UHGV virus genome: UHGV-1383976
From: a virus
Reading direction: 5' to 3' (one strand)
DNA: 64,000 bases
The position numbers and the translations under genes are program-made. Shown here piece after piece: positions 17,080 to 40,073 of the stretch. The notes beneath the pieces were generated by a model. It was not told where the DNA came from, did not search any database, and worked only from the letters and a program-made list of their open reading frames with translations. Numbering within the stretch: the stretch's first letter is position 1; every line of letters begins with the position of its first letter.

Positions 17080-17805
17080 GAAAAAGTCAAAAGGAGGACA
17101 ATGCTAGTGCCACCTACACGTGGTGTCCTCTGTTTTCGCTAAGAGCGCTGGCATATATCCAATTAAATAATACTAACTCAGTGAAGACGGAATTCGATGT
17201 TCCGGCTGAGAAATTCCAGCTAGCACAGCAGAAACGAAACAAGGATACTTGTGGATACTGGACTGAGAGGCCATCGAGAGATGAGCCGAAGTAGAGCGGT
17301 CGCTCAAGTGGGAAGAAGAGCAGGAATTGTGCTGAGTGAATCGCAAGCAAACGCAGCCGTGGAGTGGCGAGCGCAATAGACAGCTTGGTGAATAGCCAAG
17401 CCGAACCCAAGTTAGGTCTTAGTTGGTGCCTGTGGCAATCCTTGGGAAAACCAATAAGCTCGTTCCGTTGAGACGACAGGGAATGTGAAATCTGTCTTTG
17501 ACACTCTACAGCATCCGAGTAGCGGAACACAACGGGGACTTATAGAAAAGATGGTCAGTAATAATAGAAATTGCTATTTTATCTTTCTGAACATCCCGTG
17601 AAAGGTAGAGGTAATCAACCCTCTGGCGGATTAGGCGACATTAGACACTTGGGCTATCCAAGAGTAACAAGTCAATGTTGTTGCTGGGGTAAGAAGTGTA
17701 TGGGCGACGGCCTGTATGCTCAGACTTATCTCCCGCGTGGCAGAATATGCTTGAAGGTTTATCGAGGTAGGGCGAAGGCCCAGTAATATTTAGTTGGATT
17801 TATAT
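17080..17805 (+). ncRNA. candidate large structured ncRNA (~700 nt, GC-rich, ORF-free)
   Basis: no credible ORF on either strand; GC content clearly above flanks; promoter upstream; tRNAs on both sides. Confidence 0.45.
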
Positions 17806-19266: not shown

Positions 19267-19890
19267 ATGGAAGAATTAGGTCTGTTTTTGGGTTTGGGAG
19301 ATGATGCTAACTATCAGCTTGCTAATCCAAGCCTGTTAGCGTATTACAAAGAACTCAATGAGCGTCGTCTCTGGCTCGATTGCGAGGTAGATGATGAAGC
19401 GATAGGTGATATGTGCCGCCAGATTATTCGCTGGAATAAGGAGGATGACGCAATAGAACCTTCGAAGAGGAAAAAGATTATTATCTATTTTGTCAGCCCC
19501 GGTGGCAGTTTAGACAGCTATCTATGGCTCAAAGACGTAATAAATCTGAGTATTACTCCGATAGTTGGTATTATGATGAGCCGCACAGCTAGCGCGGCTG
19601 CTCTGATATATCTTCATTGCCACGAACGCTATGCTCTTGAGAGTTCAAAAATCTTGTTCCATTATGGTTCGATTTCTCTCGCACAAGACGCCGCAAATGC
19701 GATTGAGGCGGTAAAAAATTATGAGCAGGAAATCAAAAAGTTTGTTGACGTAATTCGTGAGCACTCTGACTTTTCAGATGATTATATTCGTGATAAGTTG
19801 GTCAAGGATTGGGAACTTACGGCTGACGAAGCTCTCGAACATGGCATTGTTCAAAAAATAATAAGCGATATCAGCGAACTCTGGAACTAA
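19267..19890 (+). CDS. ClpP-like (S14/crotonase-fold) serine protease
   Basis: YFVSPGGSLDSY...SRTASAAALIY resembles ClpP INSPGG...AASMGA. Confidence 0.55.
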   Translation: MEELGLFLGLGDDANYQLANPSLLAYYKELNERRLWLDCEVDDEAIGDMCRQIIRWNKEDDAIEPSKRKKIIIYFVSPGGSLDSYLWLKDVINLSITPIVGIMMSRTASAAALIYLHCHERYALESSKILFHYGSISLAQDAANAIEAVKNYEQEIKKFVDVIREHSDFSDDYIRDKLVKDWELTADEALEHGIVQKIISDISELWN

Positions 19891-19901: not shown

Positions 19902-20222
19902 ATGGATAAATATACTGGCTATTATGAGTGGCATCCATCAGAACAAGGACTTGAGGATTTTTATTCTGGCCTTTTTACACCTGCAGGGATGGGCTTGGTT
20001 GAAAACCAGTATTTGATTATCTATGACTCCGAAGATAAGGTTATAGATAAATATTTTTGTAAGAACAATGAATTTGAAAAGGTTCATTATATGGCGCTTC
20101 AAAGCGATTACTGTGGGGTTATCAAACCACGCAATGTATATCAGGAATTGGCTATTCATTCCCTTATGGATAGACGTGTTCCCGTAAAAGTTTTGGGTGG
20201 CGTCTTTGGCTCGGGTAAATAA
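19902..20222 (+). CDS. phoH: PhoH-like ATPase, exon 1 (ends inside the Walker A GGVFGSGK)
   Basis: ORF stops immediately after GSGK; continuation found at 21150. Confidence 0.55.
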   Translation: MDKYTGYYEWHPSEQGLEDFYSGLFTPAGMGLVENQYLIIYDSEDKVIDKYFCKNNEFEKVHYMALQSDYCGVIKPRNVYQELAIHSLMDRRVPVKVLGGVFGSGK

Positions 20223-21149
20223 CTTGCCCCTTCTTAGGGCGACCTAAGAATGAAAATCGCGTGAATTGCTGGAAGCCTAAGCCGCAAGGTATGGTAATCA
20301 GCAGCCAAGCCGTTTTAGCAACGGAAGGTTCAACGACTATCCCGGCAGGGAGTAGGGAGCAATCCCGAAGCGCGCGACAACTTTTGTTTTGTTTTTATTT
20401 TAATAAAGGAGGTGAGGTTATAAATAAGTGGACAGATGAACAAAAAGCAGAAATTATTGATGATTATACCAAAAAAGGTATGACTTTGGCAGAGATTGGA
20501 AAAAAATTTCATTCTAAAGGAGATACAATTAGTAAATATCTAAAGTCTTGGGATATTCCCATCAATCGTAGAAAGAAAAATCGGCTTATGAATGAAAAGT
20601 TTTTTTCTATAATTGACTCAGCTGAAAAGAGTTATTTTCTGGGCTTGTTATTCGCTGATGGTTCAGTTGTTTTAAATAGCGAGCGGGCGCCATATGTTTC
20701 TTTAGAATTAGTAGAAAAGGACAAAGAAATATTAGAAATTTTCCGTTCATTATTAAATTGTCAAAATGACTTATACTACAATAAGCGAGATAATCGGAAG
20801 AATGGAACATATACTTTTGGAGTAAGAAGTCAATTACTAGCTGATGATTTAGCTAAATTTAATATCATTCCAAATAAAACTTATGAAACAACCCAAGTAA
20901 TTTTCCCAGAAAATTTTCTTATTGATTTTCTAAGAGGGTATATTGATGGCGATGGCTCTATTTATCAAAATGTTTATAAGGCCGTTTGGAATGGACAAGA
21001 TGCTAAACGAATTATAAACATTCTCTATTTAAAGAACGATGGCATTGCGCTCTCTCGAAAACGAGAACGAGCTAAGTTAGCTCAACAAAACAAAAGTTGA
21101 TGATATAGTCTAATCCCTTTTTAAAAATATCGGGAAACCGAGGGTATAA
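20223..21149 (+). mobile_element. putative group I intron with LAGLIDADG homing endonuclease
   Basis: interrupts PhoH between Walker A and downstream motifs; ~180-nt structured non-coding 5' part. Confidence 0.55.
20420..21100 (+). CDS. LAGLIDADG homing endonuclease (two motifs) with N-terminal HTH
   Basis: LGLLFADGS and LRGYIDGDGS; no canonical start after RBS aaaggaggtga; frame open from 20261 through intron RNA. Confidence 0.65.
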   Translation: MNKWTDEQKAEIIDDYTKKGMTLAEIGKKFHSKGDTISKYLKSWDIPINRRKKNRLMNEKFFSIIDSAEKSYFLGLLFADGSVVLNSERAPYVSLELVEKDKEILEIFRSLLNCQNDLYYNKRDNRKNGTYTFGVRSQLLADDLAKFNIIPNKTYETTQVIFPENFLIDFLRGYIDGDGSIYQNVYKAVWNGQDAKRIINILYLKNDGIALSRKRERAKLAQQNKS

Positions 21150-21683
21150 ATGAAGGATCTTCTAATGAGCGGGGCTTGTTTTAGCTTTATCGAAAAAGGT
21201 ATTTTTGAAAAACTTGTTTATATACGCCCCAATATCACGCTTGAAGGAGTGCCTGATATTGGCTACCTCAAAGGCGGAATGGACGAAAAGCTTGAATGGA
21301 CTTTAGCTCCATTATGGGATAAGTTCGGTGGCCGCGAAGCTACTCAAAATCTTGTTGCTTCTGGCAAGATTGAGCTTGTAGCCTTACCTTTTATCAAAGG
21401 TCGCAGTTTTGAAAACAGCATTATTTATGTCAGTGAAGGCCAGAACATTACTCGTAAAGTCGCTGGCAATATTATTAGTCGCGCTGGTGAGGGCACTGAA
21501 ATTTGGATAAATGGCGACTATCACAGTCAGACCGATCGCAGAATGTTTGAGGTTGATAATGGTATGCGTGCGATGGAGGAAACCCTGAAAGGCAATGCGC
21601 TCTATGAAACTATTTATCTTCCTATTACAGAGCGTTCTGCTGTAGCTCAACTTGCTGGAATTGTTTGTAACACTGAAAATTGA
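21150..21683 (+). CDS. phoH: PhoH-like ATPase, exon 2
   Basis: IIYVSEGQNIT and IWINGDYHSQTD match PhoH DEAQN / TGDxxQxD motifs. Confidence 0.55.
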   Translation: MKDLLMSGACFSFIEKGIFEKLVYIRPNITLEGVPDIGYLKGGMDEKLEWTLAPLWDKFGGREATQNLVASGKIELVALPFIKGRSFENSIIYVSEGQNITRKVAGNIISRAGEGTEIWINGDYHSQTDRRMFEVDNGMRAMEETLKGNALYETIYLPITERSAVAQLAGIVCNTEN

Positions 21684-21780: not shown

Positions 21781-21815
21781 TATATATCGTGAGGGGCAAT
21801 CGCCCCTCTTTTTTT
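21781..21815 (+). terminator. rho-independent terminator
   Basis: gaggggcaatcgcccctc followed by a T-run. Confidence 0.6.
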
Positions 21816-21838: not shown

Positions 21839-23530
21839 ATGGGAACGGTTTATAATGATGTATTACATACTTATTCGCCTTACGGCCCGAATAATTATAT
21901 GCCGCGCACAGGTCGCTACAAATTTAACCAGCGGCACAATTATGAGAACAATATAAAAGCTTTGCGAGAAAAAGAGAATACTTTTTATAGCGCCATACTA
22001 GGGACAACGGTTTCTTCTTTTGGAGAATTTGTGCGGCAAGTCAAAGAAAAACTGTCAAAATTTCAGCAAGATACAAATGCTTTGCGGCAATTAGATAACG
22101 ATAGGCTTACTCAAGCGCTTTACCGTAAATATGGTTTTTCTACAAAAGGGCAATGGGATCAAGACGCTACTTTTTCTCGTCTTGTCGTTAAATTGGACGC
22201 TTCTGTTGCTGAGAACACCTTGAATACTTATATTAAAGAGATAGAAAAAACTGTTATTGCTGAACTCCAAAAGATAGGCCAAGTTGGGAAGGCTGATTTA
22301 AAGCTATCAGTTAGTGGCAATTTGAAGGCTGGCACACTTACTATAGATTTTGGTCTTGACAAGGGCGCAATTGAGAAAAAACTAGACGAAACTGGCTTGC
22401 TAAAAGGTGTTGTCAATGCCGCAATGGGTCGTAAGTTGAAAGTCGAAGCACAAAGTCTTGAATGGTTTAAAAACCAAATTTTGAATGATCCAAATTTGAT
22501 AAGCTTGACAACTAATAAAAAAGAATTTGTTTGGGAAGCTAATTCAAAACTTAGGACAAAAGATAGAGAAGGCAATGCGAATCCTTTTGCGATAAGTAAA
22601 AAAGGCTTAGCAAAAAAGAATATTAGTCAACAGCAACAAATTGAGGAAGAAATCAAATCTTTTATAATGGCTACAATTGGCTATGGTCAGACATCGCAAG
22701 ATTTTCAAAATGTTTTTCAAGAAGCTTGGCGCACACAAATCTCTAGCCGGAAATTAGGTATTGCAGGATATACTTGGAATGGTGCAATAGCTAATATAGT
22801 TGGCGCTTTTGGTGAGTTTCAAACTTATGTTTTATTCCAATACATCTCACATTTGTTTGGGGGAAAAGCGCAAGGTAAAATAGCTGACGCTTTTGCTAGT
22901 GGCGAACAAATGAAAGCCGATATCCAGTTTTTCCAAGGGTTTGGCATCCAAGTAAAAAATTATTCTGGCTATGGTTCTGAACTAAAGGAACTTAAATTTA
23001 ATATTCATCCAAATAAACTTATTCAATATCCGCAAATCAGCGAATGGATTGGTTCAAGTTTTTCAGAATATATTGCAAATTACTACTTCAATAAAGATAT
23101 CAATCGCACGCCATTTGCGAGCATTATTGATGGACTAAAGCGAGCTTTTGCTGAAATAGCTTCAATGGGAACAACAGATGATGTGCCTGACACCGTTTGT
23201 CTTTATAATTTAGGTGGTGGTTATCTAATTCCAGCGTCAGATTTACTTGAGCAAGTTTATTTACGGTCTTATCGCTTAGACGATACTCAAGTTGCGATTA
23301 CATCCGCTTTTGAAGGCTCTACAAATAAAGAGTTTCATAAAAAGAAAAAAGGAAAGGATGGAAAACAACAAGAGCCAACTTTTTTGAAATACTGGGAAAG
23401 AGATGGAGAAAGCTGGAAGCCAAAAGATGAAAACAGAAACCTCTACGCACAAATGCTCAATTCAAAAATTTCAATCCGCGCGGTAGTTCCTTATGAACAA
23501 TTTCTCCGTGAGGGTTATAAATTATGGTGA
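21839..23530 (+). CDS. hypothetical protein (563 aa)
   Basis: RBS aaaggaggg; long ORF. Confidence 0.55.
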   Translation: MGTVYNDVLHTYSPYGPNNYMPRTGRYKFNQRHNYENNIKALREKENTFYSAILGTTVSSFGEFVRQVKEKLSKFQQDTNALRQLDNDRLTQALYRKYGFSTKGQWDQDATFSRLVVKLDASVAENTLNTYIKEIEKTVIAELQKIGQVGKADLKLSVSGNLKAGTLTIDFGLDKGAIEKKLDETGLLKGVVNAAMGRKLKVEAQSLEWFKNQILNDPNLISLTTNKKEFVWEANSKLRTKDREGNANPFAISKKGLAKKNISQQQQIEEEIKSFIMATIGYGQTSQDFQNVFQEAWRTQISSRKLGIAGYTWNGAIANIVGAFGEFQTYVLFQYISHLFGGKAQGKIADAFASGEQMKADIQFFQGFGIQVKNYSGYGSELKELKFNIHPNKLIQYPQISEWIGSSFSEYIANYYFNKDINRTPFASIIDGLKRAFAEIASMGTTDDVPDTVCLYNLGGGYLIPASDLLEQVYLRSYRLDDTQVAITSAFEGSTNKEFHKKKKGKDGKQQEPTFLKYWERDGESWKPKDENRNLYAQMLNSKISIRAVVPYEQFLREGYKLW

Positions 23531-32095: not shown

Positions 32096-32142
32096 ATAAA
32101 AATATAAGATAATTGAGATTTTACAAAAGGAGATCAATTCAA

Positions 32143-33138
32143 ATGATAGGCGTAGACCTAAATCAATATCGTAATCTACCTGATTACGCACAACTTAAAA
32201 AGGATGGTTATGAGTTCGCCATTATAAAACTGGCAACTGGTGTAACCTTTACTAACCCGCTTTTTCAAACCCAGTTTAGTGGTTGTAAGTCAGCCGGCCT
32301 AAACATCGGCGTTTATACTCGTGCCGACAAGCAACCTACAAGCGGCGCACAGGAAGCTGCCTATGCACTCAACATACTAGGTAATCGTCATGTAGATTTC
32401 CCCATCTACTATGACGTAGAGGGAGAAACACTAAATCTTTCAAAAGACAAGCTGACTCAGCTGGCTCTTGATTTTGGTAAAGCAATAAAACGCGCAGGAT
32501 ATCGCTGGGGTATTTATACATCCCGCGCACATTTCAAATGCTTTGACCTTGACAGGCTGAAAGAAGCTGGCGCATCTATATGGTGCGCCGCCTATGATAA
32601 TCAAGCTGGTATGGAGTGCGACATTTGGCAAAAGTCAGATAAAGGCTCTATTACAGGATATTCTGGACCAGTTGATGTAGATGTTTTATATAATGAAAGC
32701 ATAATACAGAAGGAGGAAAATAAAATGAGTTTGAATTTGATAAAATGTTTTCAAACACAAGGCGCGTGGTATAATCAAACCACAAATGGAACTCCTGTTG
32801 GGGTATGTTGGCACGATACCGGCGCTGGTAACCCAACATTGAAGCGCTATGTCCAGCCATCTACTAATGACCCCGATTATAATTATTTTATAAACCTTAT
32901 CGGCAAGAACAATAATGGCAATCACTGGAATCGTATGGCCGCAAATCAGGCAGGATTGAACGCTTGGATTGGTCAACTCGCGGATGGCAGTGTTGCTACT
33001 GTTCAGGCTGGCCCTTGGGAAAAGCGTCCTTGGGGTGTTGGCTCTGGCAGATACGGTTCACTTAATGGTGATAAGAATGTGCCTAATGATAAGTTTTGGA
33101 TCCAGTTTGAGATTACATCGTTGCTAGTCTCCGCGTAA
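32143..33138 (+). CDS. endolysin exon 1 (GH25 muramidase + N-terminal half of amidase_2)
   Basis: IGVDLNQY...GYEFAIIKAT (GH25); VCWHDTGAGN...GSLNGD (amidase_2 front half). Confidence 0.65.
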   Translation: MIGVDLNQYRNLPDYAQLKKDGYEFAIIKLATGVTFTNPLFQTQFSGCKSAGLNIGVYTRADKQPTSGAQEAAYALNILGNRHVDFPIYYDVEGETLNLSKDKLTQLALDFGKAIKRAGYRWGIYTSRAHFKCFDLDRLKEAGASIWCAAYDNQAGMECDIWQKSDKGSITGYSGPVDVDVLYNESIIQKEENKMSLNLIKCFQTQGAWYNQTTNGTPVGVCWHDTGAGNPTLKRYVQPSTNDPDYNYFINLIGKNNNGNHWNRMAANQAGLNAWIGQLADGSVATVQAGPWEKRPWGVGSGRYGSLNGDKNVPNDKFWIQFEITSLLVSA

Positions 33139-34182
33139 AGCGATTTGCGTGTAAAAATACATATCGAATTGCTGGAAAACCGTAAAGCTATTCTTGCTAC
33201 AACGTAAGGATGAAACAAGCCTAAGCGTGAAAGCCGCGAAAGCAGAAAGAAAAGAATAGATGGCGTATGGTTAAATCCTAAGCGCTATATAATTGGCAAT
33301 CAGCAGCTAAGCCTTGAATAAAGGAAAGTTCAACGACTAAGTGCCTTGCAAGCGATTGGCAAGGACAGTGGTATGCGGCTCATTGAGCCGAAGATATAGT
33401 CTGTGCTTCGAGAGAAATCCGAAGGAGCGAAAGCTCAGTGCGGGGTAGCGCCCAAAAAGTTTATTTTGAATGGAGAAAGAAATGACTTATAAAGAATTTA
33501 TTGACAATATTTTAGAAGAACGAGGACGTTTTTCGTGTGGAGAGGAATATCACGAGAGGCATCACATTCTTCCTAAGTGCAAAGGCGGCACAGATGATAA
33601 AGAAAATTTGATTGACTTATTTGCTAAAGAGCATTTTATTGCGCATAAATTGTTAGCTGAAGAAAATCCTGAAGATATAAGTTTGGTTAGGGCTTATCAA
33701 TGCATGACAATAGCTAGAAATCCAAAAACTGCACGATATATTGCTTCTTCTGAAGAGTATGAGGAAGCAAGAAAAATGTTTTCAGAAGCTCTCAAAGAAT
33801 TATATAAAGACAAAACAAAGCATCCAAGCTATGGCAAACATATTAGTGAAGAAAGAAAACAACGAATTAGTGAAGCCAATAAAGGAAATAAGTATTGCGT
33901 TGGCCGGAAAGTTTCAGAAGAAACACGCAAGAAAATAAGTGAAGCCAATTCGAACCCTTCCGCCGAAACGCGTGAAAAAATGAGTCAATCTCAAAAGAAG
34001 CTCGCACGGTGGGATGGAGCAAAGAATCCTAAAGCTCGAAAAGTTGTTCGTCTTTCTGATGGGAAAGTTTATGATTGTATTAAATATGCCGCCGAAGAAA
34101 ATAATATTCCTCTCTCCACTTTCAAAAGTAGATTACACAAAGGCAAAGGCGATTTTGTGTATTTCGAAGACTATCAAAATAA
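33139..34182 (+). mobile_element. putative group I intron carrying an HNH endonuclease
   Basis: 330-nt GC-rich ORF-free 5' segment + HNH ORF; splits the amidase_2 domain. Confidence 0.55.
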
Positions 34183-34192
34183 ACAGCACTAA
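33470..34192 (+). CDS. HNH homing endonuclease with NUMOD-like repeats
   Basis: HHILPKCKGGTDDKENL..HF.AH HNH motif; repeated ISEE/EANKG modules. Confidence 0.7.
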   Translation: MEKEMTYKEFIDNILEERGRFSCGEEYHERHHILPKCKGGTDDKENLIDLFAKEHFIAHKLLAEENPEDISLVRAYQCMTIARNPKTARYIASSEEYEEARKMFSEALKELYKDKTKHPSYGKHISEERKQRISEANKGNKYCVGRKVSEETRKKISEANSNPSAETREKMSQSQKKLARWDGAKNPKARKVVRLSDGKVYDCIKYAAEENNIPLSTFKSRLHKGKGDFVYFEDYQNKQH

Positions 34193-35265
34193 ACACAAAC
34201 AGATGTGACGATTACGCACACAACCAACCTTGTCGCAGATCTTATTTTGAACAAGCCTATCAGCAAGCTGTCGAATTTACTGCCTACATTTGCCAACTCT
34301 ATAACATAGACCCGTTTGGCACCGCCAATTACCGTGGCCACGATATTCCGACAATTTGTTGCCACTATGATAGCTATAAGTTTGGTTTTGGTTCCAATCA
34401 CAATGATGTCTATCAATGGTTCAATCGTTTTGGTAAAACTATGGATGATGTCAGACGCGATGTTGGCGCACTAATGGGTAAGGTTGTCGTTCCTGATACT
34501 CCCGACCCTGTCATTCCTTCTCAGCCATCTCGGCCTTCTAACCCTTATCCGACACTTAGGGTTAGCGCACATGGCGTTGCCGTCAAAACTGCGCAACAAC
34601 GTCTTATCGCACACGGTTATGATGTTGGTTCCGCTGGTGCTGATGGCTGGTTTGGTGAAGGTACTCTCAAGGCCGTCAAGAGGTTTCAGTCTGATAAGGG
34701 TCTTACTGTTGATGGCATAATTGGCTCTGCTACTTGGACAGCGCTAAACAAAGAGCCAGAGAAGAAAGAAGAACCAGTGCAGCCTGTGCAACCAAGTGAG
34801 CCAGCTAAGCCTATCCAACCATCCACTAATCGTCCGACAATCGGCGTTGGTGATAGTGGAGCTTACGTAAAAGAAGCCCAAACAATGCTGAAAAAGCTGG
34901 GCTATAACATTGGCTCCTATGGTGCGGATGGTGTGTTCGGCAACTCTACCAAAGGTGCAGTTCTCAATTTCCAAAAGAAGAGCAACCTCGATGCTGATGG
35001 CATTGTTGGCCCGAACACTTGGGCCAAACTCGATAAACAAATTGCCGCGCTATCTGATAATTCGACTAGCTCTAGTGGAGTTCCATTCCTTGTTCGAGTC
35101 AATTCAAATGCCCTTAACATTCGTAAAGGCCCCGGTACTAATTATGCTATTGCTCGTACTATAACCGACCGTGGCACCTACACAATAGTTGAAGTATCTG
35201 GTGATTGGGGCAAACTCAAGAGCGGCGCAGGCTGGATAAATCTGAATTATACTACCAGAGTTTGA
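34183..35265 (+). CDS. endolysin exon 2 (amidase_2 C-terminal half + 2×PG_binding_1 + SH3)
   Basis: frame open from 34183: RGHDIPTICCHYDS (amidase_2 Zn site); two PG-binding repeats; SH3b. Confidence 0.6.
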   Translation, partial: TALNTNRCDDYAHNQPCRRSYFEQAYQQAVEFTAYICQLYNIDPFGTANYRGHDIPTICCHYDSYKFGFGSNHNDVYQWFNRFGKTMDDVRRDVGALMGKVVVPDTPDPVIPSQPSRPSNPYPTLRVSAHGVAVKTAQQRLIAHGYDVGSAGADGWFGEGTLKAVKRFQSDKGLTVDGIIGSATWTALNKEPEKKEEPVQPVQPSEPAKPIQPSTNRPTIGVGDSGAYVKEAQTMLKKLGYNIGSYGADGVFGNSTKGAVLNFQKKSNLDADGIVGPNTWAKLDKQIAALSDNSTSSSGVPFLVRVNSNALNIRKGPGTNYAIARTITDRGTYTIVEVSGDWGKLKSGAGWINLNYTTRV

Positions 35266-39116: not shown

Positions 39117-39143
39117 ATATATAGAAAGTGAGAGAGAAATATG

Positions 39144-39221
39144 GGCCGGATAACTCAGATGGTAGAGAACCAGTGCGGTTAGGCGCTGGAGGAGGCGGTG
39201 GTTCGAATCCACCTCGGCCCA
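39144..39221 (+). tRNA. atypical tRNA-like (7-bp anticodon stem, 6-nt loop GGTTAG)
   Basis: perfect acceptor ggccgga/tcggccc and T-arm ggtgg-ttcgaat-ccacc; non-canonical anticodon arm. Confidence 0.4.
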
Positions 39222-39224
39222 ATT

Positions 39225-40073
39225 AGATATGAAGGCGACATACAGTTATTATAGTCGCCGGACGTACTGCTCCGTCCATTACGAACAGAGCAGCCCCGCA
39301 AAACGAGGGTGAGAGTTGAGTTTGTTGGTTTTACTTGAAACCGCCGTCGGGGTAAGTGGCGTTACATCTTACCAAAAAAATCCGTCTGACTGCAGTAAGG
39401 GCGGTTGGTTTGTAGGTTTGCCAATAGGTATAAGTCTAGATACCAATAAAATACTTACCAAAGAGGAGTAATATGGCTGAAGTCCTCCAGCGTGGTTGAT
39501 ATGTTGAAATGCCTAGGCCACGCACATATGTCAGTTTAGTTTAACGAGGGAAAACAACGCCCGTCAAGGCGTAATTTCGGGTTCGAGTCCCGAAACTGTC
39601 CTTGGTTTGACAGGCCAAGAAATTTGTCAGGTGCGGCCCTTTGTCGCCGGTCGAGACTCCGTCCGGAAATGAGCTACGTCTAAGTAAGAAGCGTGAACTT
39701 AGCGCTGATGTGCGTGATGCATCGGTTGCGTGTCCAAAACACGACAGGTTTGGTTGAGTTTTCTACACAAAATTCAATTGGGTCAGGCCGCCCACAGGAT
39801 GGCCGCGGGTTCCACTCCCCGAACGAAAAACAATCGGGAAATCTCTTGTTTTTCTCAATTTTGTTAGTAGTTAGTCGCATTGATGAAATTGCTTTTTGGA
39901 GTAAAGTTGTGAGTAGCTAAAGAAATGACAATTCTTTTTCTACTCAAAAAGCCAAGTATCCGCCTCTGCTTGGACATCCGCGCGAGGTTGCGTGTTGATG
40001 AAAAGCGTGGAAGGCAGTTATATAATGGGGACTGCCGCATAGTTGGTTTAGGAGAGTTGCCAGCTACGGAAAT
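39225..40073 (+). ncRNA. candidate large structured ncRNA (~850 nt, GC-rich, ORF-free, with tRNA-like modules)
   Basis: no ORFs; embedded T-arm-like cgggttcgagtcccg; same transcription unit as the flanking tRNAs. Confidence 0.45.

Follow-up and report, generated by a model that had tools for sequence, protein, structure and literature searches.

The stretch of 64,000 nucleotides (nt) of the UHGV virus genome UHGV-1383976 analysed here, which we call the window and in which all positions are counted, carries a phoH gene in two pieces separated by a group I intron. Exon 1 (19902..20216, 105 codons) ends with GGC TCG GGT, encoding the G-S-G of the P-loop, and exon 2 (21153..21683, 176 codons plus stop) begins with AAG GAT, its K-D, which places the insertion between the Gly105 and Lys106 codons. 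The intervening 936 nt (20217..21152) form an IA2-like intron with P7.1 and P7.2 hairpins, within which lies an open reading frame (ORF) for a LAGLIDADG homing endonuclease (20420..21100, 226 codons plus TGA) with an N-terminal helix-turn-helix and two LAGLIDADG motifs. These features, together with the ribozyme elements, Shine-Dalgarno (SD) sequence, deletion junction and terminator-like hairpin described below, lie on the + strand. We consider it very probable that the locus represents a mobile, self-splicing intron of the phoH P-loop whose endonuclease starts on AUA and, in the window copy, is likely nuclease-dead.

The phoH exons and the intron-less allele

A protein search with the spliced product found 224 contiguous PhoH homologs, including one (P0001) of exactly 281 amino acids (aa) that is 99% identical in aa sequence to the spliced window protein. 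The P0001 gene is present in six metagenomic contigs (L001-L006), all with the gene order clpP, phoH and 563-aa ORF; in the window these neighbours are a ClpP-like protease gene upstream (19267-19890) and the 563-aa ORF downstream (21839-23530), with a terminator-like hairpin and T-run 3' of phoH (21791..21808). The spliced window ORF differs from this allele by 46 substitutions and no gaps (94.6% nt identity), and in a multiple alignment exactly the 936-nt intron is absent from L001-L006, the intron-less site in L001 being GTCTTTGGTTCAGGTAAAGATCTTCTAATG. The end of exon 1 was set by this alignment together with the pairing of helix P1.

Joining 19902-20216 to 21153-21683 yields an 846-nt ORF of 281 aa, in which ...TTTGGCTCGGGT is followed directly by AAGGATCTTCTA... 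(GGT/AAG). The spliced protein matches the Pfam PhoH family PF02562 over profile positions 2-186 (1e-27, 97.3 bits, cut-off 27) and PDB entry 3b85 (5e-11), and the match of the exon 2-side ORF (21150-21683) alone begins only at profile position 40. Read without splicing, the ORF 19902-20222 has the C-terminus ...GGVFGSGK followed by an in-frame TAA (20220-20222); the intron itself opens with this AAA Lys codon and the TAA stop, six bases in all, and in the spliced gene the Lys is encoded by the AAG of exon 2. Between intron-bearing phages the phoH exons have a ratio of non-synonymous to synonymous rates (ω) of about 0.02-0.04, indicating that phoH is still in use and therefore that the intron must be removed.

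A sequence-only reading of this DNA had proposed a group I intron splitting the Walker A motif of a PhoH-like ATPase, and this is borne out by the Rfam RF00028 match, the U and terminal-G boundaries, the full set of helices, the compensatory changes and the gap-free spliced ORF. The group I covariance-model search (66.7 bits against a cut-off of 50) and the comparison with an intron-less phoH allele, both of which it had put forward as checks, agree, as L001-L006 lack precisely the proposed intron. Its boundaries need adjustment. GGVFGSGK does end the ORF, but the exon ends one codon earlier at 20216 (GGT) with the same protein as the result; exon 2 begins at 21153 rather than 21150, the ATG at 21150-21152 being the last three intron bases, and the insert measures 936 nt, not 927. 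The reading had also pointed to DEAQN-like and TGDxxQxD-like motifs in exon 2; these are present as SEGQN and NGDYHSQTD, whose counterparts in the aligned PhoH structure 3b85 are DEAQN and TGD-ITQVD.

A junction shifted by 3 bases (20219/20220 and 21155/21156, after AAA) would give the same protein with one mismatch fewer to L001; it was rejected because an unpaired A would then precede the splice site and because the P10 covariation fits 21153. The sequence at the intron end (21140-21152) is GAGGGTATAAATG; here an ATG that shares the exon 2 frame comes after an SD-like GAGGG, and this explains why gene callers report a PhoH fragment of 172/177 aa. The last intron triplet is also ATG in L012, L013 and L015, and is GTG in L023 and not ATG in L018-L020. 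Contig L007, which carries the intron at the same site, has phoH exons that resemble those of the intron-less L001 almost throughout; the exceptions, TCG at -6 to -4 and AAG at +1 to +3, match the window and strengthen P1 and P10. These intron-adjacent bases could be the trace of recent homing with a very short co-conversion tract, or they could have been selected because they improve splicing.

As a PhoH-like ATPase, the spliced protein resembles the family in its PF02562 and 3b85 matches and departs from it in having GSGKD where 3b85 has GSGKT, and SEGQN where 3b85 has DEAQN. The canonical Walker A (GxxxxGK[ST]) and Walker B (hhhhDEAQN) are thus replaced by GVFGSGKD and IIYVSEGQN, with Walker A at 20202-20216 plus 21153-21158 and Walker B at 21428-21442. 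The same holds for this phage PhoH subfamily as seen in 15 aligned homologs, whose Walker A is GxxGxGKD rather than GK[ST], with E in place of D107 in one of them, and whose Walker B is (S/T/C)EGQN rather than DEAQN; the two Mg-binding positions look reciprocally swapped.

Architecture of the ribozyme

The RF00028 match scores 66.7 bits (gathering cut-off 50) with E = 1e-14 across the whole 64-kb window, and is therefore not due to chance. It was placed at 20207-20482, and the 3' third of that alignment, which puts the model's P8-P9 on 20394-20482 within the endonuclease ORF, was rejected; the real P8', J8/7, P7' and P9 lie at 21084-21152, and the true J8/7-P7' is caught by a second RF00028 match (28 bits, 20919-21132). 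Some 177 nt of ribozyme core (20217-20393) thus precede the endonuclease gene, in keeping with the roughly 180 nt of structured RNA that had been expected before the ORF, and a further 69 nt (21084-21152) complete the ribozyme on the 3' side of the gene, overlapping the last endonuclease codons.

All core helices from P3 to P9, including the P3/P7 pseudoknot, were located. P1 (20213..20229) pairs exon GGGU plus intron AA with UUGCCC (20224-20229) over 6 bp and contains the 5' splice-site wobble U20216·G20226; the last intron base is G21152. The 5' core (20231..20379), whose helices P2-P7.2 have RNAalifold support, comprises P2 (20231-38/20243-50, an 8-bp hairpin with a GCGA loop), P3 (20257-63/20371-77), P4 (20267-72/20298-303), P5 (20277-83/20288-94, GCAA loop), P6/P6a (20305-28), the 5' strand of P7 (GACUA 20335-39, pairing with UAGUC 21106-10), P7.1 (20340-51, UCCC-GGCA-GGGA) and P7.2 (20355-66, GGGA-GCAA-UCCC). 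The P8 5' strand (20380..20393, ACUUUUGUUUUGUU) pairs perfectly over 14 bp with 21084-21097, and the stem closes a 690-nt loop that holds the endonuclease gene. The 3' core (21084..21152) then consists of the P8 3' strand (21084-97), J8/7 (21098-105; J8/7-P7' reads GAUGAUAUAGUC), P9 (21115-18/21141-44) and P9.1 (21131-40, GAAA loop), and P10 is formed by exon 2 AAG with CUU 20223-25. P7.1 and P7.2 hairpins between P7 and P3' are a hallmark of subgroup IA. The window has both in this position, downstream of the P7 5' strand and ahead of the 3' strand of P3, with covariation, and the IA2-like assignment follows this helix criterion.

Covariation was assessed in a set of seven related introns, the other same-site intron contigs being L007, L008, L012, L013, L015 and L023. 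RNAalifold independently predicts P1 through P7.2, with compensatory changes in 14 of the 44 pairs. One of these is in P1, where exon position -4 and its guide partner form a G-C pair in six sequences, replaced by U-A in L015. The P10 pairing AAG/CUU of the window is AAA/UUU in L012 and L013, two contigs in which covariation is also seen at the base of P8 (ACUCU/AGAGU); P7, P8 and P9.1 were inspected by eye.

From this structure we posit that the phoH transcript is spliced as follows. A clpP-phoH transcript would be made, on which the second intron codon, TAA, would halt ribosomes translating exon 1. In the folded ribozyme, P1 would join GGGU at the end of the exon to the internal guide GCCC, and guanosine-initiated splicing would join ...GGT to AAG..., producing the mRNA for the 281-aa PhoH.

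Endonuclease start, deletion and alternative readings

The endonuclease ORF sits in the P8 loop and its last codons form the P8 3' strand. The encoded protein matches Pfam PF14528 (LAGLIDADG_3) with 36.4 bits against a cut-off of 22.5 (6e-9); it has an N-terminal domain of three helices and both motifs of the two-motif LAGLIDADG protein recognised from sequence, LGLLFADGS and LRGYIDGDGS, with invariant D/G columns. Its SD sequence (20405..20415, AAAGGAGGTGA, with the GGAGG core at 20408-20412) lies in the P8 loop and is kept in L007, L008, L012, L015 and L016. As noted in the sequence-only reading, no in-frame ATG, GTG or TTG stands just after this SD: the first canonical start downstream is ATG 20480, 20 codons into the conserved helix-turn-helix domain. 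Its suggestion of a non-canonical start is supported here, since the in-frame ATA at 20420-20422, 7 nt past GGAGG, aligns with an ortholog ATG and strong purifying selection has acted in the ATA lineage. The other option it offered, translation from unspliced RNA alone, does not amount to an alternative, as every intron ORF has the precursor or the excised intron as its template.

Among 31 aligned homologs, the initiating Met almost always stands 0-3 residues ahead of a conserved KRxWT; P0122 and P0131, which are gene calls extended upstream from TTG, depart from this. More specifically, the ortholog P0123, which L008 and L009 carry at the same phoH site, has ATG precisely where the window and L007 have ATA. 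Between the window and L007, the ATA-bearing pair, there are 17 synonymous and 3 non-synonymous substitutions (ω 0.04), a split with a binomial probability of 1.3e-9 under neutrality, where about 4 non-synonymous changes are expected per synonymous one; the synonymous excess is found on both branches with L008 as outgroup. This indicates that translation of the ORF continued beyond the change from ATG to ATA. AUA, well spaced from a strong SD, is most likely the start, being the most economical candidate. Initiation from AUA or AUU in Escherichia coli reaches 1-2% of that from AUG (10.1101/063800). The near-cognate AUA start, 7 nt past a strong SD, would allow only a low level of protein. The literature searched contained no report of an intron endonuclease that starts on AUA.

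Related phages show further departures at this position. A sister lineage (L013, L014 and L017) has ATT at the start position after an SD-like AAAGGTGAT, with an intact 269-codon ORF, which looks like a second, independent near-cognate start. In the IMG/VR contigs L015 and L016, in-frame TAG codons occur at the endonuclease starts (L015 1489-1500, L016 187-198) and at codon 142 where relatives have CAG (Gln), and the ORF is otherwise intact; this suggests that these phages read TAG as Gln. The start position in phoH P-loop endonucleases is thus AUA (window, L007), AUU (L013, L014, L017) or AUG followed by in-frame ambers (L015, L016). One might speculate that a weak start is itself a design, an evolved throttle on endonuclease translation beside an SD that always stays strong, though we are inclined to doubt it. 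Such a throttle would keep ribosomes from unwinding P8 and disturbing phoH mRNA splicing, in which case codon choice would achieve here what delayed translation achieves for T4 I-TevI.

The sequence-only reading overlooked a 40-aa deletion in the second LAGLIDADG domain. Compared with every homolog, the window endonuclease lacks 40 residues directly after the second LAGLIDADG helix, an in-frame loss of 120 nt relative to intact copies, with its junction between 20962 and 20963 (20957..20968). In the intact L007 copy, which encodes 266 aa, the deleted segment is flanked by a TATCAA direct repeat, as is characteristic of slippage or microhomology deletion. The identical deletion is found in L010 and L011, which come from other samples and independent assemblies, and it is therefore not an assembly artefact. 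An AlphaFold model of the intact ortholog P0123 (predicted local distance difference test (pLDDT) 94.3) has two complete αββαββα domains and finds I-AniI, I-Tsp061I and bI3 maturase as its best PDB matches. On this model the deletion takes out β2', α2' and β3' of domain 2 entirely and β1' for the most part; the window protein, modelled with a pLDDT of 90.5, has no β-strand in domain 2 and so does not have two complete domains. Binding of the two half-sites by a monomeric LAGLIDADG enzyme depends on both β-sheets, and with the sheet of domain 2 lost in the model the window nuclease is probably dead. Because the ORF carries no further damage, the deletion appears to be recent.

The mobility of the intron is suggested by its family. 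Intact endonuclease copies would cut intron-less phoH at the P-loop codons, and the intron would be copied in during co-infection; the window intron would persist as a splicing-competent passenger, mobilised only in trans.

Other accounts of the locus can be set against this one. The region could hold no intron at all, the 106-aa ORF, the LAGLIDADG gene and a 177-aa PhoH fragment from ATG 21150 being three separate genes without splicing, as gene callers in public assemblies annotate them (106, 269 and 172/177 aa); the SD-like GAGGG ahead of ATG 21150 and a weak promoter-like match (9/12) at 21082-21109 would fit. The 177-aa product, however, has no P-loop, the 106-aa exon 1 ORF by itself matches no Pfam family, and both pieces are colinear with 281-aa homologs. 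The ribozyme, moreover, scores above the Rfam cut-off and shows covariation, and the promoter-like match is the conserved J8/7-P7 sequence GATATAGTC. In a promoter scan nothing inside the intron exceeded chance, and the number of promoter-like sites, 12, is close to the 7.8 ± 2.3 of shuffled sequence. We find this account scarcely credible. Another possibility grants the intron and moves the endonuclease start to an upstream canonical codon in the ribozyme core (GTG 20261, ATG 20291 or TTG 20384): the frame is open from 20261 in the window, and P0121 is called from ATG 20291 and P0122 from TTG. None of these codons has an SD, however, and all lie inside the P3-P8 helices; between them and the SD the frame is not kept, L007 having gained 5 nt and L008 carrying 1-nt indels, and, with the exception of P0122 and P0131, aligned homologs start just before KRxWT. 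An upstream start is accordingly very unlikely.

The more serious competitor is that the change from ATG to ATA silenced the gene, leaving an untranslated relic in the window and L007 within a real intron. ATA is indeed derived, as the outgroup L008 and most homologs have ATG, and the large deletion that the window copy later took is what the degeneration phase of the homing cycle would lead one to expect. The excess of synonymous changes accumulated since the shared ATA speaks against this, as do the intact full-length ORF of L007, the unchanged SD and 7-nt spacing, and the ATT at the same position ahead of an intact ORF in the sister lineage; we judge a relic improbable, if less so than an upstream start. 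Several observations nonetheless weigh against an AUA-started gene in a homing intron. An in-frame TTG (20384) lies 36 nt upstream of ATA, inside P8, in both ATA copies. The selection signal rests on 20 substitutions and is open to distortion by recombination between intron copies or by noisy polarisation, the outgroup being at a synonymous divergence (dS) of about 1. The window branch, although it carries the deletion, still shows about 10 synonymous to 2 non-synonymous changes, which would mean either that the deletion is very recent or that the truncated protein keeps some selected role. Identity to the intron-less phage falls to 92% near the insertion site, compared with 95-98% nearby, but this dip is no deeper than other nearby dips and similar ones occur elsewhere, and as a co-conversion signature it is only suggestive.

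Distribution and relation to known systems

Endonuclease relatives split phoH at the same residue (106) in L012-L020, L023 and L024 (tblastn of spliced PhoH against the fetched loci). The PhoH proteins of these contigs are 24-56% identical to that of the window, and some have the canonical GK[ST] P-loop. Homing endonucleases target invariant catalytic motifs, and occupation of the same site across very divergent phoH genes fits this rule. In L031, L033 and L048 a related LAGLIDADG gene lies at a different phoH position, at about residues 127-142 to 159 of the window protein, suggesting a second intron insertion site in phoH. From these occurrences the intron and endonuclease family is widespread in uncultivated phages. 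The literature searched reports no phoH intron, and a DNA search of 50,697 phage records found only a match of about 80 nt to intron cores in polymerase genes, with no cultured relative and no annotated phoH intron.

It follows that the true product of the locus would be the 281-aa PhoH, where public assemblies show two phoH fragments and an over-extended LAGLIDADG ORF, and that phoH, at its P-loop codons, is to be counted among the conserved phage genes that group I introns have colonised. The sister phages form a series, from intron-less through intron with intact ATG endonuclease and intact ATA endonuclease to ATA with deletion, which could serve as a system for the homing cycle and for near-cognate AUA initiation, probably with a Firmicutes-type host.

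Elsewhere in the window there is a second group I intron (RF00028, 71.2 bits, 33075-33424; flanks 32113-35265) in an endolysin-like gene, with GH25 upstream of the intron and PG_binding_1 and SH3 downstream, and an HNH/NUMOD3 endonuclease ORF (33470-34192) follows its ribozyme core. A ROOL RNA (RF03087, 272 bits, 17153-17800) lies amid a transfer RNA (tRNA) gene cluster and is kept in L001, L007 and L008. At 39142-39222 and 39530-39601, ARAGORN reports tRNA-like genes with irregular anticodon loops and the anticodons 'gtta' and 'tc', which Rfam also scores as tRNA.

Taken together, this is a well-supported, ordinary mobile group I intron, in which the host gene and insertion site are new and by which the understanding of group I introns and homing endonucleases is unchanged. 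Like the IA2 introns of other phages (T4 td with I-TevI, and the DNA-polymerase introns of Felixounavirus, Staphylococcus, Listeria and Enterococcus phages), it comprises a self-splicing group I ribozyme in a conserved phage protein gene, with the P7.1/P7.2 extension and the GAUAUAGUC J8/7-P7 motif, an in-frame stop right after the 5' splice site and an endonuclease ORF looped from a peripheral helix; with the polymerase-gene introns it shares about 80 nt of core (20261-20341) at 80-82% identity. It differs in its host gene, phoH, and its P-loop site, and in that the ORF lies in P8 and overlaps the P8 3' strand. Its LAGLIDADG cargo also sets it apart, as phage introns mostly carry GIY-YIG, HNH, PD-(D/E)xK or EDxHD enzymes and LAGLIDADG is unusual among them (PMC3984707).

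With the two-domain LAGLIDADG enzymes I-AniI (1p8k), I-Tsp061I (2dch) and bI3 maturase (2ab5), which the intact ortholog model matches at a Foldseek E of about 1e-8 and probability 1.0, the family shares two LAGLIDADG helices with conserved acidic residues and an intron-encoded gene. Identity to them is only 14-20%, an additional N-terminal three-helix helix-turn-helix domain is present here, and the window copy departs further in lacking the β-sheet of domain 2 and in its putative AUA start. A parallel to its present state is the T4 nrdB intron, whose endonuclease I-TevIII is described as defunct and trans-mobilised, with an intact copy kept in RB3 (PMC1865063, PMC2790892). Both are splicing-competent phage introns in which the intron's own endonuclease gene bears a deletion and relatives are intact; the difference is that I-TevIII belongs to the HNH family and that, for the window intron, mobilisation in trans is a possibility.

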